This document shows, piece by piece, positions 25,650 to 44,386 of a stretch of 64,000 nucleotides of DNA. Source of the stretch: Phycisphaerae bacterium (GTDB lineage: Bacteria; Planctomycetota; Phycisphaerae; UBA1845); the NCBI GenBank assembly GCA_963666835.2, contig CAXXGO010000005.1:1-64000 (forward strand), read 5' to 3'. Below the pieces are notes generated by a model. The model did no database searches. It was given only the letters and a program-made list of their open reading frames with translations, and had not been told where the DNA came from. The position numbers and the translations under genes were made by a program. The stretch's first letter is position 1. Each line of letters opens with the position of its first letter.

Positions 25650-26028
25650 GACTGCTTCGGTCTTGCCCATTACTCCGGGTCGGAATGACTGATGTGGCAA
25701 CAGGACTGCAAAACGAAGCGGTGGACGTAACTTGGGTATAGCAAAGGGATTACCCAATACTTCACAGAGCAAATGTGGGGACTTGCTTCTGGCGACGCGT
25801 CGGGATGGACGTAATCTGTCCCGGCGCTGTCGCCGGCGCCAGTCGCAACGCCGACTTGCCGGGTCTTGGGTGACGCGCTTCTGGCGTTACCCCAAACATC
25901 TGACGAACTTTAGTCCGTCGAGGGTGTTGAAAAGCGAGGCGAGGGGCAGTATCGTGACATCTATGGCCGTGGCTAAACAGTGGCGTGCAGCTACGGGCCA
26001 CGATTGAGACAGGATACGGAGATCGAGT

Positions 26029-26313
26029 ATGAATCAAACTCAGAGGACAAACGCAATTGAACGTGATGCCAACGCGGCCGGATCCTGCGTGGAGCTGATT
26101 GACGTAGAGGCGGTAGCTCGGATTCTCGGGTGTTCTGCCCGGACCGTCTATCGTCTGGCGGACTCCGGCAAGATGCCCAGGCCGGTTAAGCTTGGACAGT
26201 TGGTGCGTTGGCCGCGGGCGAAGGTGGAAGGCTGGATTGCGGACGGATGTCCTGCGGTGCGGGGAGCAATCCGGCGAAGCCGGAACGAGATGCACACGAA
26301 GCAGTGCGTGTGA
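26029..26313 (+). CDS. AlpA/excisionase-family helix-turn-helix protein
   Basis: LIDVEAVARILGCSARTVYRLADSGKMPRPVKLGQLVRWPRAKVEGWIADGCP. Confidence 0.88.
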   Translation: MNQTQRTNAIERDANAAGSCVELIDVEAVARILGCSARTVYRLADSGKMPRPVKLGQLVRWPRAKVEGWIADGCPAVRGAIRRSRNEMHTKQCV

Positions 26314-27108
26314 TATGCGTGTGACGCCGAATCGTGGGATGGACGAATGGTGGATTGGCAGAAAACACTGCAAACAATCAGCGCTGTTAGCGCCGGTACA
26401 GCGGTTCAGGCTGGACGCCAGCTAACCGGGCAGCCCCGTCCCCTGGCTTCGTAAGGGGATGAGTCGAATCGGACTGACCACCGGCGGTGACGACGTACGG
26501 CCGGGAGAGCCGCTTCCCAGTGGGCCGCTTGTCCAGCGGGAAGGCGAGTCAGGTCGAACAACGCTCGTGGTGCTGAGGATGGCTTCGGCTGTGGCCAGCA
26601 CGTTAGACACCTTCCGGGGGACAGCAACCCTCACGGTGGCGAGTAGTAGTGATCTGGCGTATGCGGTGTCGATAGTCCGGTCGCAGGCGGGTGAAACTGG
26701 ATTGCCTGCGGAAAAAGAAATATCCAGCGGTTCAGCGATGGGCTCGGCGGCGTGCCGCACGGAGTGACGCGACCGTGTCACCGACCTCAGGCATGGGGTC
26801 GGTGCGCTCCGGGTCTGACGGTTGCCGCTGTGGTCGCCACGGCCGACCGACAGCTATACGATAAGTCGAAACACTCGACGGCGAGACGAACGAATGCGGG
26901 GAATACGGGAGATACAACCGACAGGCGCCCCGGTTGGGAGCGGTATGGCTCCAGCCGCAAGCGGGATGACAATGGACCGCATGAGAAAGCAAACCACCGA
27001 ATCCTCGACACTGACCAGGCTGTTACGCGGACCCCTGGACAACGCCGACATCCTGGCCGCCTGCTCTGGAATAGAGTGCCGCCAGACCAAACGCAAAGGA
27101 CAACCGCT

Positions 27109-28992
27109 ATGGGACACGTTTACCGACCGACATACACGAAGCCGCTACCTGACGGAGCTGAAGTCGCCGTCCGAAAGGGGGAGCTGTTCGCCCGATGGGT
27201 CGATGGACGCGGCCGGAAACGAACCGCGAGAGTGACCACAGGCAAGGACGGCACGGACCGTATCCTTCTTCAAAGCGGGACGTACACCGCGGAGTACCGC
27301 AACGGGGCCGGGCATGTTGTGAATGTTGCGACCCGTTGCCGATCGAAGGATGCGGCCTTGTCCATGCTGACCGAGCTTCAAGACCGCGCCGACAAGGTAC
27401 GGTCCGGCGGATGGACTGTGGCAGAAGATGCCGTCTTGGACCACAAGGACACGCCGATCGCGGATCACATCGACGCGTATCTGGCGTACCTGCGGACGAA
27501 ACGCGGCAAAGGGAGACGGGTACGAACGTCACATCATCATGTCGTGAACACAACGCGGTGTCTAAAGGTGATTGTCGCGGGGTGTGGGTTTCAGCGGCTC
27601 CGCGACTTGAACCGCGAGCCTGCGGAGAAGTGGGGGGGCCGAGCCGAGGCAGACGGGCTGGCCGCTCGGACGGTCAATTCCCATTTTGCGGCTCTGAGCG
27701 CCTTCGGAAACTGGTGTGTCGAGACGAAACGGATTATTGCCAATCCGTTCACGCGGTTACCGATGCGAGACCAGAGGGCCGACCGGCGGAAGATCCGCAG
27801 GGCGCTCACTGGCGATGAACTCCGGCGGTTGCTCAAGGTGGGGCGGCTCCGTCCGGTGGCTGAGTATGGGCGGAAGACTGTTCACACCGCGGAAGGCGTT
27901 TCCCGTACTGACAAGCGGAGCCGACGGACCTGGAAGCGGGAGCCGCTGAGCTATCACGATATCGACGCCGCGGCCGAGCGGGGTCGCGCTGCCCTGGCCA
28001 AGCGGCCGGACCACCTTGCGAAGCTGGAAGAACGGGGGCGCGGCCGGGCGTTGGTCTACAAAGCGTTGGTTCTGACGGGGATGCGGAAGGGCGAGCTTGC
28101 CGCGGTGAAGGTCCGACACCTGGAGCTATCAGGGCCGCAACCGTACATCGTGCTTGATGCGGCCGACGAGAAGGCCGGACGGGGAGCCGAGATACCGATT
28201 CGGGGCGACCTGGCGGAAGACGTGCGGGAGTGGCTGGCGGAACGACTGGAGAAACTCCGAGCCGAAGCACGCGCCGAGGGCAGACCTGTTCCGGCGATGC
28301 TCCCGGCTGATCTTCCGGTGTTCGACGTCCCGGACGGCTTGGTGCGGATCATGGACCGGGACTTGGTGGCGTGCGGAATAGCCAAGCTGGTCACCGATGA
28401 GCGGGGCCGGGTACGCATCGACAAAAGCGACGACCGGGGTAGGACCGTGGACGTTCACGCGTTGCGGCATACGTTCGGAACTCACCTGAGTAAGGGTGGG
28501 GTAGCCCCACGGACCGCACAGGCCGCGATGAGGCATAGTACCGTTGACCTGACGATGAACACCTACACCGATCCGAGGCTTCTGGACGTGGCCGGGGCGT
28601 TGGACGTGCTGCCGTCCCTCCCGCTGGCCGACGAGCCCGAATCCGAGCGGCAGAGGGCGACCGGAACCACGGGCCGGACCGAATCCTCGGGGCGTGTTCG
28701 GGGTCTCGATGCGACCGCTGACGGGCGCCGGACGGAGCGTCAACAGACCACGCCCGGACGGGCCGAACCGGGGGAAAACGGGCCGACTTCGCTTGTACCA
28801 ATGCTTGTACCAAACTCCGGCAAACGGTGCATATCAGGGGCGTCTACTGACAAAAGCATGTCATTGGGGTTGGGAGAGCGGATCGCTGTAAGTGACTTGG
28901 CTGACAAGAGTTACGAACGACAGGCAACCCCTGACAATCTACGCCGCGCGGGATTCGAACCTGCAACCTTCGGTTCCGTAGTGCGACTATAG
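27109..28992 (+). CDS. Tyrosine recombinase / phage-type integrase
   Basis: Catalytic set LTGMRKGEL (R), EKAGR (K), HALRH (HxxR), MRHS (H), MNTY (Y). RBS AAAGGA before ATG 27109. A disordered tail runs through the att site. Confidence 0.93.
   Translation: MGHVYRPTYTKPLPDGAEVAVRKGELFARWVDGRGRKRTARVTTGKDGTDRILLQSGTYTAEYRNGAGHVVNVATRCRSKDAALSMLTELQDRADKVRSGGWTVAEDAVLDHKDTPIADHIDAYLAYLRTKRGKGRRVRTSHHHVVNTTRCLKVIVAGCGFQRLRDLNREPAEKWGGRAEADGLAARTVNSHFAALSAFGNWCVETKRIIANPFTRLPMRDQRADRRKIRRALTGDELRRLLKVGRLRPVAEYGRKTVHTAEGVSRTDKRSRRTWKREPLSYHDIDAAAERGRAALAKRPDHLAKLEERGRGRALVYKALVLTGMRKGELAAVKVRHLELSGPQPYIVLDAADEKAGRGAEIPIRGDLAEDVREWLAERLEKLRAEARAEGRPVPAMLPADLPVFDVPDGLVRIMDRDLVACGIAKLVTDERGRVRIDKSDDRGRTVDVHALRHTFGTHLSKGGVAPRTAQAAMRHSTVDLTMNTYTDPRLLDVAGALDVLPSLPLADEPESERQRATGTTGRTESSGRVRGLDATADGRRTERQQTTPGRAEPGENGPTSLVPMLVPNSGKRCISGASTDKSMSLGLGERIAVSDLADKSYERQATPDNLRRAGFEPATFGSVVRL
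28791..28813 (+). repeat. Direct repeat GCTTGTACCAA x2, candidate integrase arm-type sites
   Basis: GCTTGTACCAA-T-GCTTGTACCAA about 130 bp from the tRNA fragment. A similar TTGTGCCA lies at 29088 on the other side. Confidence 0.55.
28940..28981 (-). other. 3' half of tRNA-Arg(ACG), att-site remnant (not a complete tRNA)
   Basis: Minus strand CT-ACG-GA ACCGA AGGTT GCAGG-TTCGAAT-CCCGC GCGGCGTA gives anticodon loop, T arm and acceptor 3' strand. No D arm or acceptor 5' strand upstream. Confidence 0.8.
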
Positions 28993-30191: not shown

Positions 30192-30322
30192 TTCAGTAGT
30201 ACTTTGCAGCTATTGCATGCCCGGAATACCCTCGATACGCTGACCTCTCATCTTCCGCGCGGCCTCGGAGGGGCTTCGTCGCCTCGCTGGGCGTGCGGTG
30301 CTCATGCTCGGAGGTCAAGGTC

Positions 30323-31585
30323 ATGTTGCGTTGCGGTTCTGTTGCTGCGGTGGTTGTGTTGTCGATGGTCTCTGGATCGGCGGGATTAGCGGCTCCGCCG
30401 GGCATGGTGCTCATTCCCAGCGGGGTGTTTGAAATGGGGTGCCACAATCCTCCCAGCCCCGACGACTGCCCCCCCGATGAGCTACCCCTGCATGCTGTCC
30501 TTGTCGACGCGTTCTACATAGACGTTTACGAGGTGACCAACGAGCAGTACACCGTTGCACTGAATTGGTGGTATGGTGAGGGATCGATCGATGATCCATC
30601 GGGCCACGACGGGATGGTACTGGACAGCGTAACCGGCACAGTCTACTGCGGCACTACAGAGAGCGTTCCGTCCTACAATCGGATCACCTGGGCCGCGGGG
30701 ACCTTCGGTGTAACCCCAGGCAACGAGGACCATCCCGTGGTAGTTGTCACTTGGCACGGGGCCGCCGCGTATGCCAATTGGAGAAGCGACCAGGAGCAGA
30801 AAGAGCGGTGCTATCCCGGCATCGACCAGGACCCTCCTGTCTGGGATTGCGATTTCGCCGCTAATGGGTATCGCCTCCCGACGGAGGCGGAATGGGAGTA
30901 TGCCGCCCGCGGTGGCAAGCACGATCCGTACTACATGTACCCATGGGGCGACGGCATCGATGGGACCATAGCAAACTATCAAACCTCAGGTGATCCGTAC
31001 GAAGACGCTGTCGAGATAGAGACAACCCCTGTTGGCTTCTATAACGGGTGTCTTCATCAGAAGGCCGATTTCAACTGGCCGGGGTCGGCGGCGACCTTTC
31101 AGACGTCGGACGGTGCCAACGACTACGGTCTTCATGACATGATCGGCAACGTCTGGGAATGGTGCAACGACTGGCACGATTCAACGTACTACGCGATTAG
31201 CCCTTGGGACAACCCGCGGGGGCCCGGAAGTGGCACGCATCATGCTCGCCGCGGCAGCACGTTTCACGGAGGTGTACCAAGCCAACGTAATGCGCGTCGC
31301 TGGAGGGGACCCGACGACACCCCATACAACAGTGTCGGGTTCCGCTTGGTCTCGACCAGGAGCCGGGGCGCCTGCTGCCTTCCCGATGACACATGCGGTG
31401 CTCATCTAACCGAAGCGGAGTGCAATACCGTCAGCGGCATCTACGAAGGCGACGGCACCCGTTGCGAGTGCGCGCCTGAACCATCTGTTCCGGCGATCTC
31501 CGGTGTCGGTCTCGGCATCATGCTCGTAGGCTTGGCGGCTGTCGGCGGTGTTGTGTTCGGTAGGTCGAAGCGTGCGGTAGCATAG
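30323..31585 (+). CDS. Secreted FGE-sulfatase (SUMF1)-domain protein with GACC repeat and IPTL-CTERM-like anchor
   Basis: Signal peptide; MVLIPSGVFEMG, YEVTNEQY, HPVVVVTW..A.AY..W, RLPTEAEWEYAARGG, GLHDMIGNVWEW, GFRLV; C-terminal VPAISGVGL + TM + basic tail. Confidence 0.85.
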   Translation: MLRCGSVAAVVVLSMVSGSAGLAAPPGMVLIPSGVFEMGCHNPPSPDDCPPDELPLHAVLVDAFYIDVYEVTNEQYTVALNWWYGEGSIDDPSGHDGMVLDSVTGTVYCGTTESVPSYNRITWAAGTFGVTPGNEDHPVVVVTWHGAAAYANWRSDQEQKERCYPGIDQDPPVWDCDFAANGYRLPTEAEWEYAARGGKHDPYYMYPWGDGIDGTIANYQTSGDPYEDAVEIETTPVGFYNGCLHQKADFNWPGSAATFQTSDGANDYGLHDMIGNVWEWCNDWHDSTYYAISPWDNPRGPGSGTHHARRGSTFHGGVPSQRNARRWRGPDDTPYNSVGFRLVSTRSRGACCLPDDTCGAHLTEAECNTVSGIYEGDGTRCECAPEPSVPAISGVGLGIMLVGLAAVGGVVFGRSKRAVA

Positions 31586-31604
31586 AGGAAAGGGGGATGA
31601 AGTA

Positions 31605-32234
31605 ATGACGCGAATCAAGATCGCTGTGGCGTTGATGGTGGTATTTTTGGCAGGCCGAGCGTCGGGACAGTGGGTACAATGGCCGGTTGCCGAAGGAGGT
31701 AACGGGCATTGGTATCGGCTGACCGAGGCGAATTCGACGTGGTACGAGGCCGAGCAGCAGGCCGTTATGGCAGGAGGACACCTCACAACAATAAACAGCG
31801 AGGAGGAAAACGACTGGCTTGTCGCGCAATTCGCAGACGCAGACTCGGTAACGCTCTGGATAGGCTTATACCAGGATCTGGATGATCCAGACTTCTCCGA
31901 ACCAGATCATGGCTGGAAGTGGATTGGAGATCCCGCACTCTGCCGCTGGGTCACAGGCAATCCGACTGAATGCTATACCAATTGGAATGGGGGCGAACCA
32001 AACAACGGCGGCGACGAGCAGGACTGTGTCTACTGGTACACTGATTCGGTACCTTCATCCGTGGGAATGTGGGACGACCAAATGTGCATCAGCACCACCC
32101 TCGCCATCATCGAGCGCGCCCCCTCTGTCCCCACCGTTTCCGAATGGGGCCTACTCGCGATGGTCCTGCTCGTGCTGACGGCCGGAACGATCGCGTTCGC
32201 CGGGAGAAAGCGATGCCACGGACAACGAGGCTGA
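31605..32234 (+). CDS. C-type lectin domain protein with IPTL-CTERM sorting signal
   Basis: GNGHWYRL...TWYEAE...GGHLTTINSEEENDWL, WIGL, YTNWNGGEPNN, WDD; C-terminal VPTVSEWGLLAMVLLVLTAGTI. Confidence 0.88.
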   Translation: MTRIKIAVALMVVFLAGRASGQWVQWPVAEGGNGHWYRLTEANSTWYEAEQQAVMAGGHLTTINSEEENDWLVAQFADADSVTLWIGLYQDLDDPDFSEPDHGWKWIGDPALCRWVTGNPTECYTNWNGGEPNNGGDEQDCVYWYTDSVPSSVGMWDDQMCISTTLAIIERAPSVPTVSEWGLLAMVLLVLTAGTIAFAGRKRCHGQRG

Positions 32235-32249
32235 CTCCGAAGATCAGTG

Positions 32250-32345
32250 ACTGGCAGATGCTGCCGCTCGGCTGTGAGCTGGGCGCGCCGGAGAGGGAGC
32301 GAGAGGTTCTTCACTGTCTGCTCGACGGGGCGAATGAGCGTGTGG
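32250..32345 (+). pseudogene. Possible degenerate fragment of a LuxR-type HTH gene
   Basis: Reads WQMLPLGCELGAPEREREVLHCLLDGANE, similar to LSLQFNLAERETDVFRAILDHADE in the LuxR ORF at 39470-39766. Confidence 0.3.
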
Positions 32346-32715
32346 CGGTGTCCTGGAACCGGACATTGCGATGTAGTGGGGCGCCCGCTGGCCGACCCAG
32401 AGGGTCGCTCGTGCCGGGCGCGGGTTGCGTCCGTACATCTTGTCATGGATATGTTGCAGTGGTTATCCGGCCTGGCGGCCTGGAACGGCCCAGAACCGGG
32501 CATTATGTTGCACTGCACGCGGACCAATATGGCCCTCGCGTCCGTCCGTGCGGTCACTAGCCTCCGCACTGCCACTCACGCTGTCTCCCTGCTTCAATCT
32601 CAGCTTGGTTTGACATCAGGAACTTGGTTTGCTAATCTGACAGCCTGTCCGCATTGGCTGAGGCCAGAGGGGGGCCATCTCGATTGTGAAGGTAGAGGAA
32701 AGGAGCTTGAGAGAG

Positions 32716-33555
32716 ATGTCAAGGGTTCAACTCTTTGTTTTGTTTGCGCCGGTATTGAGCTTTGGGTTTACTGTCTCTGCCGCGACCGTGCAGTTCGCGC
32801 CAGTGGCTTCAAACCCGGCTTTCCTGCTGGAATCTGAGAATCTCTACAATCCAGGCGGCATCGAGCGCAGTTGGTATGGACACGTCTTGACTAACGCCGG
32901 ACAACGCGACTTGGCTGGCTTCCGCCAAGAAATGTCAACGCCGGGGCGATACGGCGGCGGAGTTAACTGGGATGGCTTGCCTGACAGGTTCGAGATAGCC
33001 AACTCGATGGGTGTCCCTCTGGATGTTCTTGGCCTTCCTTCTCCTCTCCGGATCATGGCGACAACGAGCGGTGCACCCTTGACGACTGCGACGCTTACCC
33101 CCCCTGACCCCTTGCCGCATCATCCGGCGCCGACGTCGGGTGACAACATGATTGGCCGAGTCTATGAGGGTTGGTTTAGCAGCTCAGTTTCAAGAGAGTT
33201 GACGCTTGAGTTTCAGCCTGCTGGTGGTTTGAAGCTGCATGGGTTCGGAATGGTCATCGTTGACTCCGGCGCCGACAGCGGTGGGTTAACGGTCAGCTTC
33301 TACAACTCTGACACGCTGCTGGATCAGTTCTCTGCCAATGACGGTATACTTTTTCACAACCAGCCAACGAACGACAACTTTGTGGGATATTGGTCGGACA
33401 CCGAGATCACGCGAATCCACATGGAAACGAGTGGTACCGTCATCCGGGGACGATTCGACGATTTGGGGTTGGTTTTCGTTCCAGAGCCAAGCTCATTGCT
33501 GCTGCTTGGCATCGGCGGGTTGGCGGTCATCCGCCGCCGGCGCTGCCTGACCTAA
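32716..33555 (+). CDS. PEP-CTERM secreted protein
   Basis: Signal peptide ending VSA; C-terminal VPEPSSLLLLGIGGLAVIRRRR. Confidence 0.88.
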   Translation: MSRVQLFVLFAPVLSFGFTVSAATVQFAPVASNPAFLLESENLYNPGGIERSWYGHVLTNAGQRDLAGFRQEMSTPGRYGGGVNWDGLPDRFEIANSMGVPLDVLGLPSPLRIMATTSGAPLTTATLTPPDPLPHHPAPTSGDNMIGRVYEGWFSSSVSRELTLEFQPAGGLKLHGFGMVIVDSGADSGGLTVSFYNSDTLLDQFSANDGILFHNQPTNDNFVGYWSDTEITRIHMETSGTVIRGRFDDLGLVFVPEPSSLLLLGIGGLAVIRRRRCLT

Positions 33556-33765: not shown

Positions 33766-34473
33766 CTACGGGTCGCGCTTCAGTATCCGCACCACCGCCG
33801 AGTGACTCCACTGCTTCGACCTGCCCGTCTTAGTAGGGATGCCGCGTTCCGTCAGTTTTTCGGCGATGGCCACGAGGGTGTTCCCGCTCACCCGCATAGC
33901 CTGTATGTCCCGGATTACGGTCTGCTCGGGTTCGTTGGGGATGAGCGCTATCCCGTTTTCGGCCAAGTCGAAACCGTAGGGGACCGTCCCGACTCTCTGA
34001 CCGTTGGACTTCTTCACGGCCATGGCGGACTTGGTTCGCTCGCGGGTGAGGTTGCGTTCCATCTCAGCCGCTCCGGCCAGGACTACCAGCATGAACCTCC
34101 CGGCCGCGCTGGTGGTGTCGATCGCGTTCCCGCCAAGATCGACCACGTGCAGGGCGATTCCCTTCTTGTCCCAACGCTCCACGGTGTTCAGGCAGTCGCC
34201 AGCGTTCCTGAACCCTCGATCGAGCTTCAACATGACCACCGCTCCGGCACGACGCTGCCGGAGACACTCCAGAAGCCGATTCCCGCCTTCTCTGCTGGCT
34301 AACGGCTTCCCGCCCGAAACCCCGGCGTCGACGATTATCTCGGCCAGCGACAAGCCCTTGAGCGTTGCATAGGCCCTGATCCTCTCGGCCTGCGCTTCCA
34401 ACCCGAGCCCGCTACTCGCCTGCTCTTGGGTGCTGACGCGGGTGTACGCGATAGCCTTGGTATTCGTGTCCAT
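33766..34473 (-). CDS. Serine recombinase (resolvase catalytic domain + Recombinase DNA-binding domain)
   Basis: AIAYTRVSTQEQ (catalytic Ser), DAGVSG, KLDRGFR, AEMERNL..ERT, VPYGF, IAEKLTERGIPT...WSHSAV..IL. RBS GGAGGG. Confidence 0.92.
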   Translation of the reverse strand: MDTNTKAIAYTRVSTQEQASSGLGLEAQAERIRAYATLKGLSLAEIIVDAGVSGGKPLASREGGNRLLECLRQRRAGAVVMLKLDRGFRNAGDCLNTVERWDKKGIALHVVDLGGNAIDTTSAAGRFMLVVLAGAAEMERNLTRERTKSAMAVKKSNGQRVGTVPYGFDLAENGIALIPNEPEQTVIRDIQAMRVSGNTLVAIAEKLTERGIPTKTGRSKQWSHSAVVRILKRDP

Positions 34474-34491
34474 CTTCTTCCCTCCCCGGAG

Positions 34492-35187
34492 TTAGGCCGC
34501 TACCGGAACGGCAGGCGACTTGACCGGCTTGCCCTTGTATCTACGAAGCGTGTCGGGAAGCTGGTCGATAGCGTCCCGGATGTTGTTGCCCTTTAAGTCG
34601 ACTCCACACTTGCCTTGAACGTAGGAAAGGAACCGGAAACCCGGTGGAATCGGTAGGTTCGCTTCTCGCGCGATTCGCTCCAGGTGCTCAGCAACGGCCG
34701 GAGCGCTGGGTTTGCGGAACCGGAACCGGCGCCACCGACTGGCCAGTCCGTCGACTTCGCTCGCCCACGTTGTGCTTGTCGTGGTCCCGATGACGATGAC
34801 GTGATTCGGCAGATTCTCCAGAAGCCCCAGTAACAGGCGCTGGCAATCTCTATTAAGGTGTTGAATCTCATCGACAATGAAGGCGCGTCGCCCCGATCCG
34901 CCCATAGCGAAGCAATACATCGACGCTTCCAGGGCACGGAAGTCCGCAACGCACACGGACCGGCTATCGATCCGCTCGATACTCATATCGGAGCAACCAA
35001 GAGCGCGAGCGGTGACGTAGGCCGCGCTAGTCTTGCCGCAACCGGCAATCCCGTCCGACTCGAATAACCAGCGCTCGCCGCAACCCTCAAACAGCCAATC
35101 GTCCGAGCAGGCTTCCCGGATGTCGTCGATAATCGGCTGGCCGATGAAGTCTTCCCACGTTTGCGGTCGGTATCGTTCACTTAGCAT
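34492..35187 (-). CDS. Short clamp-loader-clade AAA+ ATPase (DnaX/RFC-like, no collar domain)
   Basis: ERYRPQTWEDFIGQ, Walker A GIAGCGKTS, Walker B FIVDEIQHL, LL..LE, SRW (SRC-like arginine finger), sensor 2 NIRDAI; only 231 aa. Confidence 0.82.
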   Translation of the reverse strand: MLSERYRPQTWEDFIGQPIIDDIREACSDDWLFEGCGERWLFESDGIAGCGKTSAAYVTARALGCSDMSIERIDSRSVCVADFRALEASMYCFAMGGSGRRAFIVDEIQHLNRDCQRLLLGLLENLPNHVIVIGTTTSTTWASEVDGLASRWRRFRFRKPSAPAVAEHLERIAREANLPIPPGFRFLSYVQGKCGVDLKGNNIRDAIDQLPDTLRRYKGKPVKSPAVPVAA

Positions 35188-35375
35188 GGCGTTCCCCCAA
35201 GGTAACAGGCAGTCGGGATTATCCCGGCGTAGTAGGTGTCCAAGCCGACATCGTCGGTCACGAAGTAGGCGTCCGCGTTATCGCAGTCCTCAGTCGGATC
35301 GAAGACCACGTAGACCGGTTCGTCGCTCTGGCGACTCCGGCGGATTGCTCGGCTTGTGGCCTTTGACAGTTTCAT
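35181..35375 (-). CDS. Small hypothetical protein
   Basis: 64 aa, coupled to both neighbours (TAATG overlap upstream, stop overlaps the ATPase start). Confidence 0.65.
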   Translation of the reverse strand: MKLSKATSRAIRRSRQSDEPVYVVFDPTEDCDNADAYFVTDDVGLDTYYAGIIPTACYLGGTPC

Positions 35376-35653
35376 TAGGACACCGCCTTTCTCGGATGTC
35401 CCCCGGCTTTGGCGAATTCGTAAACCTTCCGACTGCCGGTAGCGTCACAACATCGGCAGGGTGTGCCGTTCCAGCTTGCCCCATGTCCACTACAGGCAGG
35501 GCAGACGTCATCCCGCAAACGAGCGGTTTCGCAGTCGACGTGCCTTGCTCCCTGTCCGCGCTGCCAGTAAATCGAATCGCCAACGCGAATCTCACCGCCA
35601 CAATCCCGACACTTTCCGGCATACTTCGCTCTGATTCTTCTCGCGCCGATCAT
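35375..35653 (-). CDS. Small double zinc-finger-like protein
   Basis: AKYAGKCRDC...IYW...HVDC (CxxC...HxxC) followed by CPACSGHG...CRCCDATG (DnaJ-like CxxCxGxG pair). TAATG coupling. Confidence 0.7.
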   Translation of the reverse strand: MIGARRIRAKYAGKCRDCGGEIRVGDSIYWQRGQGARHVDCETARLRDDVCPACSGHGASWNGTPCRCCDATGSRKVYEFAKAGGHPRKAVS

Positions 35654-35913
35654 TACGCCACCGCCTTTCCGGAGAGAACCGTGAAGCGGTGTCGGCCTAC
35701 CGTGGCTATTTCCTGGAGATTCTCAGCGTCGATCGAACCGTCAAAACAGACGCATTGCCAGCGCACTAGCATTGCCAACGCTTCGATAGTGCATGTCACG
35801 GGTTTGAAGTCCGCCAGTCCGAACCCGTCGAAGATCGATAAGTCGTCCATGTTCAACGGCCGATCGGACCGGGCGATAGCCAATGCGGCGTCAAGGTCGA
35901 TAGCCTTCATCAT
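35653..35913 (-). CDS. Small hypothetical protein
   Basis: MMKAIDLDAALAIARS...; start overlaps the ArdC stop (ATGATG). Confidence 0.65.
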   Translation of the reverse strand: MMKAIDLDAALAIARSDRPLNMDDLSIFDGFGLADFKPVTCTIEALAMLVRWQCVCFDGSIDAENLQEIATVGRHRFTVLSGKAVA

Positions 35914-36773
35914 GCCACCGCCTTTCGGGTCTTGAGGGTCTCGACATCGTCGATAATCTCCCGCGCCGTCTTGCTGATTCGTTCGAGACTCTCGCGCAAG
36001 GCTTTCGAGTCTCCGTCCCAAAGGGCGATATAGCGACTTGCCCGGACTTCGACGTCAAGACCGAAGTGCGCACAAACCACGTAGGCGACCGATTCGGCTT
36101 CAAGCTCCGCCATATTGCGGGTTAAGGCGCCCCGATTCGTCTTGTGTAACGCTTCGTGGGCTAGCTCGTGGGCGAGCGTTTTTGCCTGTTGTCCCGTTTC
36201 GTGGGTGTTGTCGACTTCGATTGAACCGCCCTTGCTGACTCCGAAGACTCCGTCGTCAATCCGCTTGAATTCCAGGGCGATTCCGCGATTCGTGGCAACC
36301 GCTTGCAGATTGGAAAGCAGCGTATCGGCTGCAACGTCGATCGTCGGACAGTCGACGCTTGGTAGGTCTTCCCCGTCGGTTTGCGAAACGTCGAAGACAT
36401 GAACGGCACGGAAGGACACGCCGTGAACGGTCTCTTCCTCCCCGGACGCGGTTGTGACCGCTTTCGCGTAGGGACGCGGTGCGAAGATCATAATGCCGCG
36501 CTCGCCCTTGCGGACATTGCGCCGGAACTTCGTCTTCCAGGCCTTGAACCCCGCAACGCGAGACGCTCCAGGGCATTGCGATAGGATCAAGAGGGAATTG
36601 TGCCAGGAATACCGGTGAAACTTGGCTTGAATGGTCAGATAGGCTTGGAACGTCTCCGAAGCTCGAACCGCGTCAACCGCGTTTGCCAGGGTATCCAGGC
36701 TCTTATCGATTGTCTCGCGGAGTCGCTTCGCCTTGTCCTTCGTCGATTCTCTTGCTACAGTTTCCATCGTCAT
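35910..36773 (-). CDS. ardC: ArdC-like antirestriction protein (ssDNA-binding DUF1738 domain + HExxH metallopeptidase-like domain)
   Basis: FHRYSWHNSLLI..Q.P.A..VAGFKAW....R.VRKGE.GI.I.AP, VFDVSQTDG, TLAHELAHEALH, ELEAESVAYVVC. RBS TAAGGAG before ATG 36773. Confidence 0.85.
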   Translation of the reverse strand: MTMETVARESTKDKAKRLRETIDKSLDTLANAVDAVRASETFQAYLTIQAKFHRYSWHNSLLILSQCPGASRVAGFKAWKTKFRRNVRKGERGIMIFAPRPYAKAVTTASGEEETVHGVSFRAVHVFDVSQTDGEDLPSVDCPTIDVAADTLLSNLQAVATNRGIALEFKRIDDGVFGVSKGGSIEVDNTHETGQQAKTLAHELAHEALHKTNRGALTRNMAELEAESVAYVVCAHFGLDVEVRASRYIALWDGDSKALRESLERISKTAREIIDDVETLKTRKAVA

Positions 36774-36848
36774 TAGCTCCTTAGTAGCTAGTGGCCACGG
36801 TCCCGGATGTTGGTAGCATCGCGGGACCACTTGTCATTCCACACCCTC

Positions 36849-36877
36849 ATTATGACACACGTTTGACGCAAAGGCAA
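36849..36877 (-). promoter_or_regulatory. Sigma70-type promoter for the ardC operon
   Basis: TTGCCT - 17 nt - CATAAT with extended -10 TG, about 75 nt upstream of the ardC start. Confidence 0.65.
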
Positions 36878-37450
36878 GAAGAAAATTCGACAACCGTTCC
36901 GTTGTGCAAAAAATGCCAGGATGTGGCACCGTATACAATCTTAATCGGGCAGCCATGTTTCACCCTTGTTTTCAAGGCGTTTCCGGCTGTGTTCCGGTTT
37001 GTTTCCGTATTGTTTGCGGCGAGTCTATGCCGGATGAAGGTGCCTTCAGTCGATGACATAAGCGCGGCACGTTTCAGAGGAAAGGTGGCGACATCGAAGG
37101 CGGAGCACGTCCGGACGGGCGAATCAAGAGACGTTGGGACCCCTATCGGCCTGGAAAAGCTGAACCACACCCCCCGGTCGATCCTGGCGGTACCATCTAG
37201 ACTTAACCCCCCTCCGACGCGCGAGCAGTTTCCGGGCCGGGCAGGCCTGGATAACGCTGGCGGTCCTTTCCGGAGTCGGGTATCGTGTCGGCCATGATCC
37301 GCAAAACCATCCTGTTCGGGTGTGCGTTCGGGGCGATCGTCTACGCCGTTGCCTGGGTTGTTCTGGCCTTTCCGGTCTGCCTTCGCGATAATGGGCCATC
37401 GATTTCGGCTACCGGCTCTTGCTGGCGAGCCCTGCCGCAGCAGAGGTGAT

Positions 37451-37843
37451 GTGAAAGTGAGTAGAATGGAAGAACAAAGATCCAGTGATGAACAAGTCAT
37501 AGACGAGAAGCTATGGCAAGCCTTCTGGCTAGGAGTATGCGTTGCTAATGACCCCTTCGATGTTGAGCCAGAGAAGCTTGGCTCTGATAAGGTCTCTTCC
37601 CTTAGAGCCACGGCCGCTGCCATCCGCGCGAAGGCGCAGAATTTGAGGAGACTAGATGCGTCACTCCGCGAAATAGCGGAGGGCAAGTCTTTGCTGGGGC
37701 CAAACGTCACCGACGGTCTTGACCCGAAGGTCAAACGCCGACTAGACCAACAGGAGCGTGAAAGGCAGAAGCTAGCCCAACGATTAGTTGCGTTTCTGGA
37801 CAGAAAAGACGAGGAGCTGAACCGTTACCGAGAACAGAAGTGA
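37451..37843 (+). CDS. Hypothetical helical/coiled-coil protein
   Basis: GTG start after GAGG; charged, helical C-terminus (RRLDQQERERQKLAQRL). Confidence 0.5.
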   Translation: MKVSRMEEQRSSDEQVIDEKLWQAFWLGVCVANDPFDVEPEKLGSDKVSSLRATAAAIRAKAQNLRRLDASLREIAEGKSLLGPNVTDGLDPKVKRRLDQQERERQKLAQRLVAFLDRKDEELNRYREQK

Positions 37844-37923
37844 GAGCCATTGCTGAACGACCTTGCTTTCTCGCAAGCGCAGTTACGGAATCTCGGAAGC
37901 CCGGCATCCGAGGGACAGTCGGT

Positions 37924-38112
37924 ATGACTCTTCTGCTACTGCTCCAGCCGTTCCTGTTTCTCGTCTCTGTCTACGTCACGCTCGCCTTCATTCGTGACCC
38001 GGCGCGACGCTGGCGCCGGAAAAAGCGAGGCCCGTGCCTGACGTGCGGGTACAGCCTGGAAGGGAACGTGTCGGGAGTGTGTCCGGAATGCGGTTCGGAG
38101 ATCGCGCCATGA
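37924..38112 (+). CDS. Short membrane protein with C-terminal CxxCGY-L-GN-SG-CPECG zinc ribbon (probably 5'-eroded)
   Basis: TM + RRWRRKKRGPCLTCGYSLEGNVSGVCPECG. Confidence 0.65.
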   Translation: MTLLLLLQPFLFLVSVYVTLAFIRDPARRWRRKKRGPCLTCGYSLEGNVSGVCPECGSEIAP

Positions 38113-38678
38113 TTCGCGAGATTCTCAGCATGCTGCGCGCTGCCATTATTGTTGGGTTGACGTTGGGGGCGGTGTCGACGGCATCTGTCGGGGCGTTCCT
38201 GGTTCATGGATCATTATGGCGGTACAAGGGGCCGTCAATCACTGGGGGGGGGCCGACAACCACCCCCTGGTGGTGCGACATCTTCTTCTTGGAAAACGGC
38301 GTGGTATACTTCGATGTTGTTGCATGCCAGCCTTACGAACTGGAATACTGTGTTGGTTTTCCGAGGTCGGCATCTGATGGTCTCAGTAGAGGATCACGCT
38401 TTGAACGATTCATCGGTCTCAACGTCTTCTACCCAAAGGGTCCGTCGTGTGAATGGGGCCTGTCCGCCTACGTATCGCCCAGATTCCTTTGGGTTATCGC
38501 GTGTCTTCTGGCAACCTACCCGGCCGTCACATTCATGCGCGGTCCGCTCCGCCGTCGCCGTCGGCGCAAACGCGGCCTGTGCGTCGGCTGCGGCTACGAC
38601 TTAACCGGCAACATCACGGGTGTCTGTCCCGAGTGCGGCGTCCCGATCGATCCCAAGCAGGATGAGGCTACCGGATGA
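38109..38678 (+). CDS. Membrane protein with C-terminal zinc ribbon
   Basis: N-terminal TM, variable loop, TM, RRRRRKRGLCVGCGYDLTGNITGVCPECG. Confidence 0.8.
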   Translation: MIREILSMLRAAIIVGLTLGAVSTASVGAFLVHGSLWRYKGPSITGGGPTTTPWWCDIFFLENGVVYFDVVACQPYELEYCVGFPRSASDGLSRGSRFERFIGLNVFYPKGPSCEWGLSAYVSPRFLWVIACLLATYPAVTFMRGPLRRRRRRKRGLCVGCGYDLTGNITGVCPECGVPIDPKQDEATG

Positions 38679-39175
38679 CCACCATGCGGACCATCTCTCG
38701 GAAACGACGAATCCTGAAGTGGGCGGGGTCGGTGGCGTACGTTCTTTTGGCGACAACGCTCATCTTATCACGATGGTGGACCGCGGGTTGGCTCGGCGGG
38801 ACCTACATTGTAGTCACCAAAGGTGGCGCGGTAGTGGTCACCGTTCTTGACCAGACCGGACGTGAACTTGGCTGGAAGGTCCGCCGGAACGTCCCCACTT
38901 CACGCATGGACTGGTGGTTTCGCCGCACCCCGGCGAACCTCTCCGGGATGTCGGTCTTCGCCACCCCTCTCTGGGCACCCCTGGTTGGGATCGGCCTCCC
39001 GACATTCTTGGCATGGCGGCGCGATCGCCGGATTCCGCCCGGTCACTGTGCGAGCTGCGGTTACGATCTGACGGGCAACGTCTCGGGCCGGTGTTCGGAG
39101 TGCGGAACGCCCGTGCCCCAGCAAACAACTTGCGACGACGGGATACCCCGGTCTCCGGAGGATGAAAACAAGTGA
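38675..39175 (+). CDS. Membrane protein with C-terminal zinc ribbon
   Basis: RRILKWAG + TM, loop, PLWAP TM, RRIPPGHCASCGYDLTGNVSGRCSECG. Confidence 0.8.
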   Translation: MTTMRTISRKRRILKWAGSVAYVLLATTLILSRWWTAGWLGGTYIVVTKGGAVVVTVLDQTGRELGWKVRRNVPTSRMDWWFRRTPANLSGMSVFATPLWAPLVGIGLPTFLAWRRDRRIPPGHCASCGYDLTGNVSGRCSECGTPVPQQTTCDDGIPRSPEDENK

Positions 39176-41422: not shown

Positions 41423-41941
41423 TCACCTACGGACTCCGAACCCCTGCAGGAGAATCTCTCTGGCTGCTTCATCAGCTGCCTCAAGTGTCGAGAAGACCGG
41501 AATGCCAAACCGGAGGTCAAAAGGTCCGCGAAGCCGTGCAGTATACACCAGCTTGTCGTCGATAGTAATGCCAATCATCTTGCCGAGACGGCCCTTCGAC
41601 CAATGTCTGAATCGATCCCTGCACAATTCTTGCACCCAAACGATGACGCCGAAGTTCCCATCTGGAAAGTCCATCGTTTCGATCCGGTCACAGTCACAGC
41701 AGGCAAGTGAAATCCCGGCTTCTTCTTCTCGATACCAGACCGATCCGTCTTCGCCAACGATCCTTACGGTGTGGGCATCAGTGGGGATGCCGCTGAGGCC
41801 CAACACCTGCACGTAGTCAGGGTTTCCGGACGGCGCCACCTTGACCGGCGCACTCGTCGTATCCGTGTTACGCTGTTGATTCCCTACAAACAGAATCAAG
41901 ACAATCAGTCCGACCACCGCTATACCCGTGATTACTCGCAT
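41423..41941 (-). CDS. Putative exported immunity protein for the orphan RHS toxin (SecD/SecF P1-head-like)
   Basis: Start overlaps the orphan toxin stop; N-terminal TM/signal; RLGKMIGITIDDKLV..ARL..P....FST.EAA.EAA. Confidence 0.7.
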   Translation of the reverse strand: MRVITGIAVVGLIVLILFVGNQQRNTDTTSAPVKVAPSGNPDYVQVLGLSGIPTDAHTVRIVGEDGSVWYREEEAGISLACCDCDRIETMDFPDGNFGVIVWVQELCRDRFRHWSKGRLGKMIGITIDDKLVYTARLRGPFDLRFGIPVFSTLEAADEAAREILLQGFGVRR

Positions 41942-43215
41942 TTGCCTACATCACCCTCGCCGCACTGAAGAGGCCCTGGATTATTAGTCCCCAGCGGACT
42001 ACCGTGTACATCACAGAGCGTCTCGCCATACCCTATTGTCTCGCAGGACAGAACCGCTCTCATGTTGTCAAAAACGGCCTTCCCATAGATATGCTGGGAT
42101 TTTCCTGTGCCCTCGATCGTCTTCTCTTCTCGGTACTCACCTGCTCCGTCGTCGCAATCCCGCACACACGTGCGGACACATATCTCCTTCTTCCGGCAAG
42201 CCCTGCCACTCCAGTCAATGCGGCTATGATCATAGCTGCTGTAGCCGCGAAGTAACACTTCTGCAGTCGGCAAATAGAACACACTTCTCATACCGAGTGT
42301 CATGTCGGCATCGTCCGCCTCGCCGTTGTCGGCTCTGAAGCCAATGACCTTTACACCAACCTTCACGGTGTTGAGGATCGTGAAATCGACATCGCGGACT
42401 GTGGCCCTCGCCTCTTTCAGCGTCCGTTGCAGGAGCCCCCTGATCAACCATTTCTCGGTTGACTTCGCCTCTCTCAGATACGTCCCGCGCACTGTTACAG
42501 TCTGGAAACCATTGGATACACGCAAACTCGTCCAGGGCCCACACTTCATGCCGAGAACATCCGTGTGCCGGGCGGGATTACTCTGAACATAGTGGTACAG
42601 ACTCATCCCATCACCGTATTGCGCCGCAACACGCGCCGCCGGTTGTACGGCAAACGTGACCGCATTATGCGAGGCGCCGCTCGTGAGCACCAACCCCGTC
42701 CCGTTCGGGTCCGCCTGCAGGAAGCGGCTTAGCAGGGGATCGTAATAGCGGGCGCGGTTATAGTAGAGGCCGGTTTCGCGGTCAAGGATCAGGCCGTTGC
42801 GGCCGAGGGGGATCAGCAGCTCGGTTAGATCGGCAGGGCCGTTGCCTTCTGCGTTGCCGGATCCGTCCTCGATGTGCTGATACGCACCGTATGGGGCGTA
42901 CGAATACTGCTGCTCGAGGTATCCCAGGTGATCGGTCACGCCGACGACGTCGTAGTTGGCGTCCTGCAACACGAAGTGCGGGTCCGGATCGGCGGCACCG
43001 GTGTCGTAATATGCCACGACCTCATCGATATAATCCAACCCGTAAACGTACCGGCGATGCGGCTCGACGGCCGTGTCGCTCGCGCTGGTCTTACGGTGCT
43101 CCAGCACGCGGTGGCCGTCGTAGTAGAAATAGTCGCCGTAGCCGGTCGTGTCGAGCGGGGCTCCGGAGTTCTCCACCCGTTTGCGAATCCGCCGGCCGAG
43201 GGCCTCGTAATCGAA
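41932..43215 (-). CDS. Orphan RHS module (3' RHS core + distinct ~205-aa C-terminal toxin domain)
   Basis: Begins mid-core (FDYEALGRRIRK...). Carries DRETGLYYNRARYYDPLLSRFLQADPNG and YGDGMSLYHYVQSNP..TDVLG, then an unrelated Cys-rich tip. Confidence 0.88.
   Translation of the reverse strand, partial: FDYEALGRRIRKRVENSGAPLDTTGYGDYFYYDGHRVLEHRKTSASDTAVEPHRRYVYGLDYIDEVVAYYDTGAADPDPHFVLQDANYDVVGVTDHLGYLEQQYSYAPYGAYQHIEDGSGNAEGNGPADLTELLIPLGRNGLILDRETGLYYNRARYYDPLLSRFLQADPNGTGLVLTSGASHNAVTFAVQPAARVAAQYGDGMSLYHYVQSNPARHTDVLGMKCGPWTSLRVSNGFQTVTVRGTYLREAKSTEKWLIRGLLQRTLKEARATVRDVDFTILNTVKVGVKVIGFRADNGEADDADMTLGMRSVFYLPTAEVLLRGYSSYDHSRIDWSGRACRKKEICVRTCVRDCDDGAGEYREEKTIEGTGKSQHIYGKAVFDNMRAVLSCETIGYGETLCDVHGSPLGTNNPGPLQCGEGDVGKCE
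42696..43139. repeat. Near-identical copy of the RHS core 3' region at about 45009-45449
   Basis: Long shared stretches such as GGTCCGCCTGCAGGAAGCGGCTTAGCAG and ATAGTAGAGGCCGGTTTCGCGGTCAAGGATCAGGCCGTTGCGGCCGAGGGGGATCAGCAGC. Confidence 0.92.
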
Positions 43216-43256
43216 GCTCAGCGAGATTCGGGCGCTGGTCGGGAAGAGCCGATTGC

Positions 43257-43475
43257 TCAGCGAGTCAAGTACAGGATCATTACACCGGTTCTAACCAAAC
43301 CAATAGCCACCCCCAGCGCCGCGACAATTGTGTACCCGCGCGACGGGCTGATTGCGATTCCCCACGCCCCATAAGCCAGAGAACCCAGCATCAAGGGAGG
43401 GGCGCAAACCACGAATGACAAAATGCCGCACGATACAGAAATCGCCCCGCTTGTCCTTGCCCAATCAATGTCCAC
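43257..43475 (-). CDS. Small two-TM membrane protein (possible orphan immunity gene)
   Basis: 72 aa, two hydrophobic helices, same strand, between the cognate immunity gene and the orphan module. Confidence 0.4.
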   Translation of the reverse strand: MDIDWARTSGAISVSCGILSFVVCAPPLMLGSLAYGAWGIAISPSRGYTIVAALGVAIGLVRTGVMILYLTR

Positions 43476-43579
43476 GCGTATGCAGACTCCTGTGATATGA
43501 GTACGCTCAGCAGCAACCCGATGTCCGGAGGATGCCGTATCTCCGAACTACCGCACTCACCCTGCGCCTCGCCCCCCCG

Positions 43580-44386
43580 TCAGTCCGACCTATCGCGCCC
43601 TTCAGCTCCTGCGACATTCCTTGCTCCCTCCGACGGCGAACCTTCAGCAAACGAACGACAGCCAAAGGCCGTTCCTAGTGGAAGGAAACTGCTCATTCGG
43701 CCAGTGCGATCTTCTATGGCAGCGTAAGCAGATACCTGCTCACCAATAGCATACGGAAGAACCGACACATCTCCGATGTTGACCCGGAGAAGTCCGTCAG
43801 CATCCGCGATGCCGTGTTCTTTGTATAGGTCCCAAGATACCGGCTCCAGTCTCCACATCCTAGATGATAGGATAGAATTGTCTTTCTGCTGCTGTGTATC
43901 CTCAATCAACGTGTGAACGATTGCTGCGTCTGGACCACAAATTATAATGTGATATCGGTAAGTCTCTCGGTTTAAATTGACCCAGTCTAACCCAAGAACA
44001 GGTTCCCCATCCATTGTGTAGTTCGCCGTAGCCATTAGTAGTACCGGTGGTCGTCTTTCCGGCAGCGTGCCCTCATCCAGTAGGCGGAGCGCCGCCAGAG
44101 CCTGCGCAACATGAAGGCTGCTGTCCCTGTACCGGATAGTGCTTCCCTGAATGACCCTGTGCAAAAAACGTCTCGTACTCTCAATCTGCTTGTGGAGCGT
44201 GTTTTTGTAATCGCGCGCGATTGCCGGGACATCTGGAAGCGCAGTATAGCCAGCGTGCGGCGCATCTGTGTCCGAGTTACGGTTGCATGCTCCTGCAAGC
44301 ATGATTAGAGCGACAACCGCACCATATCCACACGTTAGTGTAATTGCAGCTAGCGTTATTCGGGGCATCTTTTTTGCGTTGCGCAT
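43580..44386 (-). CDS. Putative cognate immunity lipoprotein of the large RHS toxin
   Basis: Overlaps the RHS 3' end; hydrophobic N-terminus with lipobox-like LAGA-C; lower GC than the RHS core. Confidence 0.65.
   Translation of the reverse strand: MRNAKKMPRITLAAITLTCGYGAVVALIMLAGACNRNSDTDAPHAGYTALPDVPAIARDYKNTLHKQIESTRRFLHRVIQGSTIRYRDSSLHVAQALAALRLLDEGTLPERRPPVLLMATANYTMDGEPVLGLDWVNLNRETYRYHIIICGPDAAIVHTLIEDTQQQKDNSILSSRMWRLEPVSWDLYKEHGIADADGLLRVNIGDVSVLPYAIGEQVSAYAAIEDRTGRMSSFLPLGTAFGCRSFAEGSPSEGARNVAGAEGRDRSD

Follow-up and report, generated by a model that had tools for sequence, protein, structure and literature searches.

The six-gene operon at 36773-33766 on the minus strand of a 64,000-nucleotide stretch of DNA from a Phycisphaerae bacterium (the window: the first 64 kb of contig C5, CAXXGO010000005.1, assembly GCA_963666835.2; positions beyond it keep the same numbering) is read here, at a probability of roughly 70%, as the conserved establishment-and-maintenance module of tRNA-integrating, primase-bearing cargo islands of the Phycisphaerae. 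The island ends, the tyrosine integrase, the primase and the recurrence of the order leader, ArdC, exchangeable small genes, ATPase and recombinase were observed directly. A first-pass annotation of the letters alone had listed six genes in about 3 kb. All six open reading frames (ORFs) lie where it placed them. Pfam and PHROG profiles bear out its ArdC, clamp-loader-like ATPase and serine recombinase, and the Cys/His ORF was recognized by eye and by phrog_1581. The genes are, in operon order:

36773-35910, minus strand: ArdC, 287 residues, with a single-stranded DNA (ssDNA)-binding N-domain and a zincin metalloprotease domain (PF08401, E 1.9e-8, above cut-off; phrog_7245)
35913-35653, minus strand: ORF of 85-86 residues, exchangeable slot, family present in 9 loci
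35653-35375, minus strand: Cys/His (zinc-finger-like) ORF of 92 residues, exchangeable slot (phrog_1581, E 1.4e-6)
35375-35181, minus strand: ORF of 64 residues, exchangeable slot, found only in this genome's two copies
35187-34492, minus strand: collar-less DnaX/RFC-like AAA+ ATPase, 231 residues (phrog_5846 clamp loader, E 6e-24)
34473-33766, minus strand: serine recombinase, 235 residues, probable resolvase (PF00239 and residues 3-51 of 102 of PF07508)

ArdC proteins are defined in the consulted part of the source by an ssDNA-binding N-domain and the metalloprotease motifs HExxH and ExxA/S (PMC7213743). Both domain features are present in the window protein, whose metalloprotease motifs read HELAH and EAES, and the H-E-L-x-H and the E are invariant in 21 sequences. 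The three small ORFs lack a firm family assignment. The 85-86-residue ORF had no family match in Pfam, PHROG or NCBIfam and none in the atlas, and the 92-residue ORF has two Zn-knuckle-like clusters, judged by eye, and weak matches in loci L033 and L064.

Stop and start codons overlap at the first four gene junctions, in agreement with the earlier claim that the first five genes are translationally coupled. The ATPase and recombinase genes are separated by an 18-nt gap, and the recombinase has its own Shine-Dalgarno (SD) sequence. The motif GAAAGGCGGTG is identical at three of the four overlapping junctions; related loci totaling 789 kb contain 50 occurrences, all of them on the operon strand. 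Its use as a recombination cassette site was considered and set aside; 10 of its 11 bases are complementary to the 3' end of the host 16S rRNA, and a strong SD sequence is the simpler reading. All six genes appear to be under purifying selection between the genome's two operon copies, judged from synonymous and non-synonymous codon differences of 50 and 14 (ArdC), 12 and 1 (85-86-residue ORF), 17 and 8 (92-residue ORF), 3 and 2 (64-residue ORF), 8 and 3 (ATPase) and 30 and 9 (recombinase).

The 3-kb boundaries first proposed for the element gave way to a larger structure. The operon is internal to islands of 12-45 kb that sit at tRNA genes and are bounded by attachment-site (att) duplications of 22-51 bp next to tyrosine integrases; around the six genes themselves neither fixed ends nor an empty site was found. 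The features of the C5 island are:

28939-28981, minus strand: att duplicate of the 3' 43 bp of tRNA-Arg(acg), distal end of the 43-kb island (97.7% identity over 43 bp to C5 72021-72062)
29465-30298, plus strand: conserved end block (93% identity in the C3 island)
29832/29841-30191, plus strand: ORF of 116-119 residues in the end block, candidate PC4/YdbC-like ssDNA-binding protein (atlas score 0.89, 190 shared features)
30293-33555, plus strand: variable cargo, namely FGE-sulfatase-like, C-type lectin IPTL-CTERM and PEP-CTERM proteins (other genes there in the C3 island and in the run X5 contig)
37294-64000: island cargo, namely a membrane/zinc-ribbon ORF array, LuxR helix-turn-helix (HTH) proteins, RHS/YD proteins, Schlafen AlbA_2 and secreted repeat proteins
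68098-70306, plus strand: Toprim primase and a 519-residue ORF, past the window end
70804-71907, minus strand: tyrosine integrase, past the window end, reading inward from tRNA-Arg(acg)
72022-72094, minus strand: intact tRNA-Arg(acg), the other island boundary, past the window end

Cargo continues past the window to about 67.6 kb. The first-pass annotation had noted no relaxase, replicase or capsid gene. A primase and an integrase lie at 68-72 kb, outside the window, so the replicase part does not extend to the whole island; relaxase PF03432 was not found in the 92%-complete genome, nor a capsid gene among the scanned island genes. The end-block ORF belongs to a family present in 12 loci and had no match in Pfam, PHROG or NCBIfam. 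A second copy of the operon on C3 matches 33778-37262 at 91% identity and lies in an island that extends 44.8 kb from tRNA-Pro(ggg) to a perfect 51-bp duplicate. The C3 island arm carries an integrase and an ERCC4 nuclease and has no nucleotide similarity to the C5 arm. The module is thus found in two different islands of 43-45 kb, and therefore the six genes form an internal module.

The same arrangement recurs in related genomes. The ATPase has 263 relatives at E <= 0.001; 120 were listed, at 71-94% identity, and the few listed matches with a taxon in their name are Planctomycetota or Phycisphaerae. They form essentially one 50% cluster. Alignment-based retrieval gave 114 loci (31 genome loci, 3 viral loci and 80 of 93 metagenome loci), among them two exact duplicates and several near-identical samples; most are shorter than 5 kb, and all 31 genome loci are titled Planctomycetota, Phycisphaerae or subgroups. 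The 3 viral loci came from the alignment search, and a single-protein scan of viral contigs gave 0. A recombinase match is present in 47 of the 64 loci with 900 bp downstream, window-type ArdC in 21 of the 37 with 2.5 kb upstream, and both in 11 of the 24 with room for both, which confirms in gene neighborhoods that ArdC, clamp-loader-like ATPase and serine recombinase recur together. Clustering of genes called with our own gene caller (duplicates dropped, the genome's two copies added) extends the ArdC family to 67 of 114 sequences, including a second, 26%-identical subtype and some fragments; L011 has ArdA in place of ArdC. The slot between ArdC and the ATPase holds 33 gene families over 67 loci and has no insert in 23, and the small middle ORFs are exchangeable by this comparison of gene content.

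Distribution is patchy. The ATPase was found at E 1e-30 in 3 of 201 genomes of the class (this genome among them), one with a distant 38% form, and the leader in 2 of 151 genomes of the phylum, one weakly (this genome again among them). Downstream of the module, 13 fetched loci have tRNA 3' fragments, and others have whole tRNAs together with integrase and primase-type genes. Extension of ten loci by 10-40 kb located both ends in three: a 12-kb island at tRNA-Leu with a degenerate 22-bp duplicate, a 19-kb island at tRNA-Gln with an identical duplicate of 37 bp and a 21-kb island at tRNA-Arg(cct) with an identical duplicate of 49 bp. Together with the two in this genome, att-bounded islands with a shared layout occupy five different tRNAs. 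Replication genes across islands are Toprim, AAA_25, DUF3987, D5 and Prim-Pol modules, and cargo over the loci includes restriction-modification and other defense-type genes, kinases and secreted repeat proteins. In L054 (11516-20677), a SRAP and DnaE2-type mutagenesis cassette with an N6 DNA methylase is the cargo directly after the recombinase.

The DNA upstream of ardC is conserved in alignments of 33 and 32 regions. The order toward ardC is a G-rich block, a short inverted repeat, AAAC tracts, a 28-bp inverted repeat, the promoter and a leader hairpin:

37134-37262, minus strand: conserved G-rich block, end of the shared module (upstream alignments)
36950-37060, minus strand: six AAAC tracts with an exact 11-bp period, after the short inverted repeat; possible accessory or bending region
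36884-36911: 28-bp inverted repeat with a 2-bp asymmetric center, probable recombinase crossover site, abutting the -35 box (sequence comparison)
36849-36877, minus strand: sigma-70-type promoter (-35 at 36877-36872, -10 at 36854-36849)
36799-36828, minus strand: 5' leader hairpin with a 7-bp stem, a bulged C and a 4-bp stem (covariation)

The promoter had been called near-consensus. Its position is conserved in the 33 aligned regions, mostly with TTGACA, and this copy matches 9 of 12 consensus positions with an extended -10, which alone is not above chance (2 found, 1.4 expected). The leader hairpin is well supported by covariation. Across 21 sequences 99.6% of cells are paired, compared with 32-47% in slid controls, two-sided changes occur at 8 of 11 pairs, and 0 of 500 shuffles reach the paired fraction. 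The leader model gave 48 matches in 73 sources, 21 of them the sequences used to build it; 47 are on the operon strand, most directly before ArdC or another first gene, and two are in this genome. The hairpin had no Rfam match. A pattern search also placed it before genes of three unrelated viral contigs (L129 3884-3923, L130 8001-8040 and L131 2782-2821), and the motif is therefore wider than the island family; a fourth viral match, L128, was rejected as a chance match within a gene. The G-rich block is a possible packaging or transfer signal, and its resemblance is to the former. A version of about 100 bp is tandemly duplicated upstream of ardC in L039, L045, L050, L057, L116 and L016.

IS607 transposases carry an N-terminal HTH that precedes the catalytic domain. 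The window recombinase does not fit this family, since its catalytic domain begins at residue 7 and the NF033518 score is 37.4 bits for a cut-off of 110. Its structure was predicted with a mean local confidence (pLDDT) of 88 and consists of a catalytic domain, a long helix and a three-helix piece of DNA-binding domain 1 (DBD1); the best fold matches are the SPbeta and Bxb1 integrases. The protein ends about 50 residues into DBD1, and the zinc ribbon (DBD2) and the coiled coil are absent. In 26 aligned recombinases the catalytic Y-R-S and later arginines are invariant, and all end at 224-238 residues. On the predicted structure the enzyme is a catalytic-plus-DBD1 fragment of a large serine integrase that lacks the directionality domain. 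The zinc ribbon and coiled coil are the seat of directionality in large serine integrases, according to the cited passages (PMC11722253), and in their absence recombination between like sites is expected rather than attP x attB integration. Self-integration, as first proposed, is disfavored by this missing domain and by a probable site that is intact and internal.

The slot after the ATPase is occupied by a tyrosine recombinase in L013, L061, L069, L097, L100 and L109 and by a classic HTH resolvase in L038, L095 and L096, and these nine loci are scattered over a tree of 82 ATPases. An integrase and a primase are already present in these islands, and a further position that accepts site-specific recombinases of any type suggests multimer resolution. 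From the missing directionality domain and the nine replacements, the recombinase is predicted most likely to resolve the excised, replicating circle.

The 28-bp inverted repeat is the candidate site for this reaction. It is present in 35 of 43 leader loci, as a rule in one copy per element, with the symmetrized consensus TTTTCTACAACGG-NN-CCGTTGTAGAAAA. The arms are complementary in 54-94% of sites at each of eleven positions, and the center is never self-complementary (AC 22, GA 4, AA 4, GT 2, TC 2, GG 1). Leave-one-out site scores were >=15 bits in 22 of 26 recombinase-bearing loci; none of the 4 loci lacking the enzyme reached this value. Upstream blocks that reach the site center continue into the promoter and leader in 29 of 31 cases; the remaining two, L112 and the first of the L026 copies, pass into foreign DNA precisely at the two central bases, and a partial left-block match alone occurs in seven other loci. 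L112 is identical to L104 at 42 of 45 positions left of the center and 12 of 45 right of it, and then runs into the ATPase gene, joining it where two intact relatives have the same dinucleotide; by this alignment it is a deletion of the promoter and ardC. The L026 copy matches at 39 of 45 positions on the left and is joined to a truncated gene for a secreted protein, in which the codons for CDDGLFCNG imitate the right arm.

The nearest solved relatives of the ATPase are DnaX gamma and RFC (E 3e-11, TM up to 0.74), and it falls far below every DnaX cut-off. The P-loop (GCGKTS), DE and SR positions are invariant in 37 sequences. The 120 listed relatives are 214-241 residues long; the collar domain is absent, and the predicted structure stops at the lid helices. 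By sequence and fold the ATPase is an intact collar-less DnaX/RFC-like module with an inferred role. It stays when ArdC or the recombinase is swapped and is present in phage contigs L040-L042 (IMG/VR) with terminase, portal or major head genes, which makes a host factor or DNA a more likely partner than a neighboring gene product. Cultured phages and plasmids gave only DnaX-like matches of 26-32%. A 207-residue, 38%-identical collar-less ATPase in another gene context (L006 1489-2112) indicates that a wider group of short clamp-loader-like ATPases exists.

Several neighboring features were also recorded. A tyrosine integrase at 27109-28992 was rejected as the integrase of the C5 island; lying outside the att duplicate, it is part of a second element arranged in tandem at this tRNA-Arg site (24549-28992), which also has a Toprim (TOP6A/Spo11-like) protein and an AlpA-like HTH. 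The final codons of this integrase overlap the tRNA fragment antisense. A paralogue of 82% identity overlaps tRNA-Gly on C6 (185254-187116). Position 24512/24513 is a probable chimeric join, clostridial-looking on the left (YlmH, methionine gamma-lyase, sugar ABC) and Phycisphaerae on the right, with lineage judged by eye; in run X1 the sequence up to 24512 and that from 24513 onward are matched by two separate contigs, each of which continues with different letters. An RHS/YD-repeat protein of 3263 residues (41932-54147) is part of the island cargo, together with an orphan RHS tip and small genes that may confer immunity; the regions C5 127-135 kb and C6 367-395 kb contain more copies. Directly upstream of the module in both islands (37294-39175; C3 433-438 kb) are arrays of small membrane proteins that end in CxxC-GY-L-G-CxxC zinc ribbons, and such arrays are found elsewhere in the genome too.

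In the proposed mechanism, the tyrosine integrase would excise the island and the primase would replicate the circle. When the island reaches a new cell, its strong promoter and the coupling of translation would produce ArdC (or ArdA) and the small proteins in a burst, as protection of the DNA from restriction. The recombinase, made last, probably binds the 28-bp repeat beside the -35 box and resolves circle multimers; that it also turns the operon down from this position is conceivable, at somewhat less than even odds. The leader hairpin may be a second control, protein-bound or ribosome-gating, with the chances about balanced. More tentatively, an ATPase homo-oligomer at primed single-/double-strand junctions could engage host replication factors on incoming or replicating DNA, and an alternative about as likely is a decoy or inhibitor of the host loader or of a defense sensor.

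Phage packaging is the leading guess for transfer, with vesicles and conjugative hitching also considered, and spread inside helper-phage particles is a possibility that we hold at a little under even. L058 has the leader, ArdC and ATPase back to back with a terminase gene, and a short version of the G-rich motif lies between. A 65-residue excisionase (phrog_57, E 2e-4) was the sole match of a PICI-packaging type among the scanned island genes, and one repeat-rich cargo protein matches tail-fiber profiles. ArdC relatives in viral contigs are distant (23-42%), and four of these contigs (L132-L135) were gene-called. Two prophage-like regions of this genome, at C5 285-308 kb and C6 197-206 kb, have large terminases and a gene order that we take to be Mu-like; the genome's own terminases sit in such regions without the G-rich block.

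A number of observations weigh against the establishment-and-maintenance reading or its parts. No excised circle was seen, in a comparison whose stretch covered one att end only, the integrase of the C3 island is frameshifted, and no att pair was found in 7 of the 10 extended loci. The downstream tRNA is on the other strand in L020, L030, L036, L087 and L091, as is the integrase in the last four. At 13 bits the association of site and recombinase weakens to 24 of 26 versus 1 of 4; L013, with a tyrosine recombinase, scores 14.8, and L011 and L053 carry the recombinase and score <0. The association is suggestive only, because the loci are related, and the L026 and L112 junctions each come from a single assembled contig. 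For transfer, the G-rich block profile reaches L058 only at E 3.1, two viral pattern scans for the block gave 0, and no capsid-morphogenesis gene or small terminase was found among the scanned island genes. Relaxase PF03432 and coupling protein PF02534, the two families searched genome-wide, are absent from the 92%-complete genome.

The genome's own copies share exactly 33778-37262 and diverge inside the final recombinase codons, as would be expected if a 3-3.5 kb unit were itself mobile via the serine recombinase and tended to settle within tRNA islands. In a set of 45 loci, most recombinase tails and the DNA after them are dissimilar, neighbors are very variable, and in L011 and L020 the DNA left of the palindrome center looks replaced. 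In a third copy (run X5), however, similarity extends beyond the stop codon (33755) and reappears at 32158-32514, and therefore 33778 is no fixed crossover. The candidate site is unbroken and lies within the module in 29 of 31 cases; neither a detached half-site downstream of the recombinase nor terminal repeats were seen. The recombinase lacks the directionality domain and is replaceable by unrelated recombinases, and the end block and att lie downstream. Mobility of the unit is very unlikely on this evidence, and a specific form of it, a self-mobile 3.5-kb unit with att in the recombinase 3' end, was rejected on the run X5 similarity and the lack of a split site. The 28-bp repeat could instead be a repressor operator only, with the recombinase an invertase or acting elsewhere. 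It abuts the -35 box like the operators described for anti-defense operons in the consulted text (PMC13551039, PMC8708921), the module in some islands is oriented opposite to the tRNA and integrase, and there is one repeat copy per element as a rule. Two rearrangements nevertheless have their breakpoint at the central dinucleotide, which for L112 is also present at the target in its intact relatives, the four loci without the recombinase lack a canonical copy, and the operon has no conserved HTH or ribbon-helix-helix (RHH) repressor family. An operator-only role is unlikely, if the least so of the alternatives to the establishment-and-maintenance module.

Decayed prophages with the operon as their early region would account for the leader, ArdC and ATPase beside a terminase in L058, for the ATPase in three IMG/VR contigs with terminase, portal or major head genes, for the nesting of phage-borne ATPases among island ones and for the phage-like size of two islands (43 and 45 kb). 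The recombinase is in none of the phage-type loci, though, five islands with different integrases retain the module and att ends, and no head, portal or terminase gene was found in the scanned genes of the att-bounded islands. We give this origin little credit, about as little as independent mobility. The conserved upstream DNA might also be an origin of transfer (oriT), with islands of the iOriT type hitching on conjugative elements. ArdC binds ssDNA, as would the candidate PC4-like protein, and counter-defense genes cluster near oriTs in such islands, as far as the cited text goes (10.64898/2026.01.13.699239). Against this stand the failure to find PF03432 and PF02534, the only two families searched, in the 92%-complete genome, a promoter of the ordinary double-stranded DNA type and a module common to tailed phages. 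Conjugative hitching is thus quite improbable, slightly less so than prophage decay.

The islands function like tycheposons and pipolins, and the operon family is apparently undescribed. No account of this operon or of such Phycisphaerae islands was found in the full-text literature, a scope that most subscription journals fall outside. In the available portion of the tycheposon text (10.1101/2020.12.28.424599), those elements share with the islands a tRNA-targeting tyrosine integrase, an att duplication of about 40 nt, a small replication module and cargo; a small serine recombinase is among the gene labels of the element figure, the elements are mostly without transfer genes, and neither an ArdC-ATPase operon with a structured leader nor the word ArdC appears. 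A site-specific integrase at a tRNA with an att duplication, by which tycheposons are recognized, is found in the islands. The integrase reads inward in the window island and toward the tRNA in L009, L015 and G203, and the replication module and cargo are present. The islands differ in phylum, in varying integrase orientation and in size, up to 45 kb. The likeness is judged on layout and gene content. Pipolins are likewise modular tRNA islands that swap integrases and cargo, and the part of the source consulted reads their short serine recombinase beside the integrase as a resolvase of the circular form (PMC11551731); their hallmark, a primer-independent PolB, had no match among the island genes scanned with Pfam and PHROGs. 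Phage-inducible chromosomal islands (PICIs) and type-C satellites share an integrase, an excisionase-like HTH and a primase-helicase by the att site, again in the cited passages (PMC10085698). The islands have the integrase and primase-replicase of PICIs; for the PICI regulator (alpA/merR/stl), an excisionase-like HTH is present in L009, L053 and G203 and none was recognized in the window island. Unlike PICIs, the islands are larger and cargo-rich, with no capsid-morphogenesis gene or small terminase found. They may already be contained, unclassified, in the TIGER/Islander table (PMC12424338).

The operon itself resembles pLS20-family establishment operons and acr-aca operons, which, in the text available, are ardC-led or anti-defense operons with variable small genes, conserved upstream DNA, a promoter-proximal inverted repeat and a 5' leader hairpin (PMC8708921, PMC13551039); the layout recalls acr-aca leaders in particular (PMC13551039). 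It differs in having no dedicated HTH/RHH repressor, the recombinase last and no conjugation system. The catalytic domain and, in part, the DBD1 fold of the recombinase are common to large serine integrases (SPbeta, Bxb1), which in addition carry the zinc ribbon and coiled coil and use unlike attP and attB. The 28-bp site is comparable to the one internal res site beside a promoter of Tn3-type resolvases; classic resolvases have an HTH, and the window recombinase does not. AAA+ domains I-II, Walker A/B and arginine-finger positions of DnaX gamma, the RFC small subunit and RarA align with the ATPase. DnaX and RFC subunits have a C-terminal collar, whereas the ATPase has none and forms one tight 50% cluster in these elements and related phages. 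The claim of an apparently undescribed early unit of anti-defense type thus holds up in the recurrent combination, and a satellite-like life is possible.

Taken further, and unlikely to hold in all its parts jointly, the islands would be phage-packaged, with the helper's packaging signal and a first-expressed anti-defense operon. A minimal 230-residue recombinase derived from a large serine integrase would resolve circles at a symmetric 28-bp site, shut the operon and capture or delete cargo at look-alike sites in secreted-protein repeats, the collar-less ATPase would be a new kind of host-replisome or defense modulator, and the undescribed leader RNA would also be used by unrelated phages.

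Most genomic islands are uncategorized, and small serine recombinases are labeled resolvase or invertase without a site, in the portions of the literature consulted (PMC12424338, PMC11551731). What is new here, in testable form, is a minimal integrase-derived recombinase with a mapped candidate site, an undescribed leader RNA and a collar-less clamp-loader ATPase. The enzyme, its candidate 28-bp site and two natural crossover products together make the role of the recombinase testable at once, and at 235 residues it is a candidate for a compact tool. The middle slot offers 33 candidate anti-defense gene families, and the module is a marker for a mobile-element family in a little-studied phylum.

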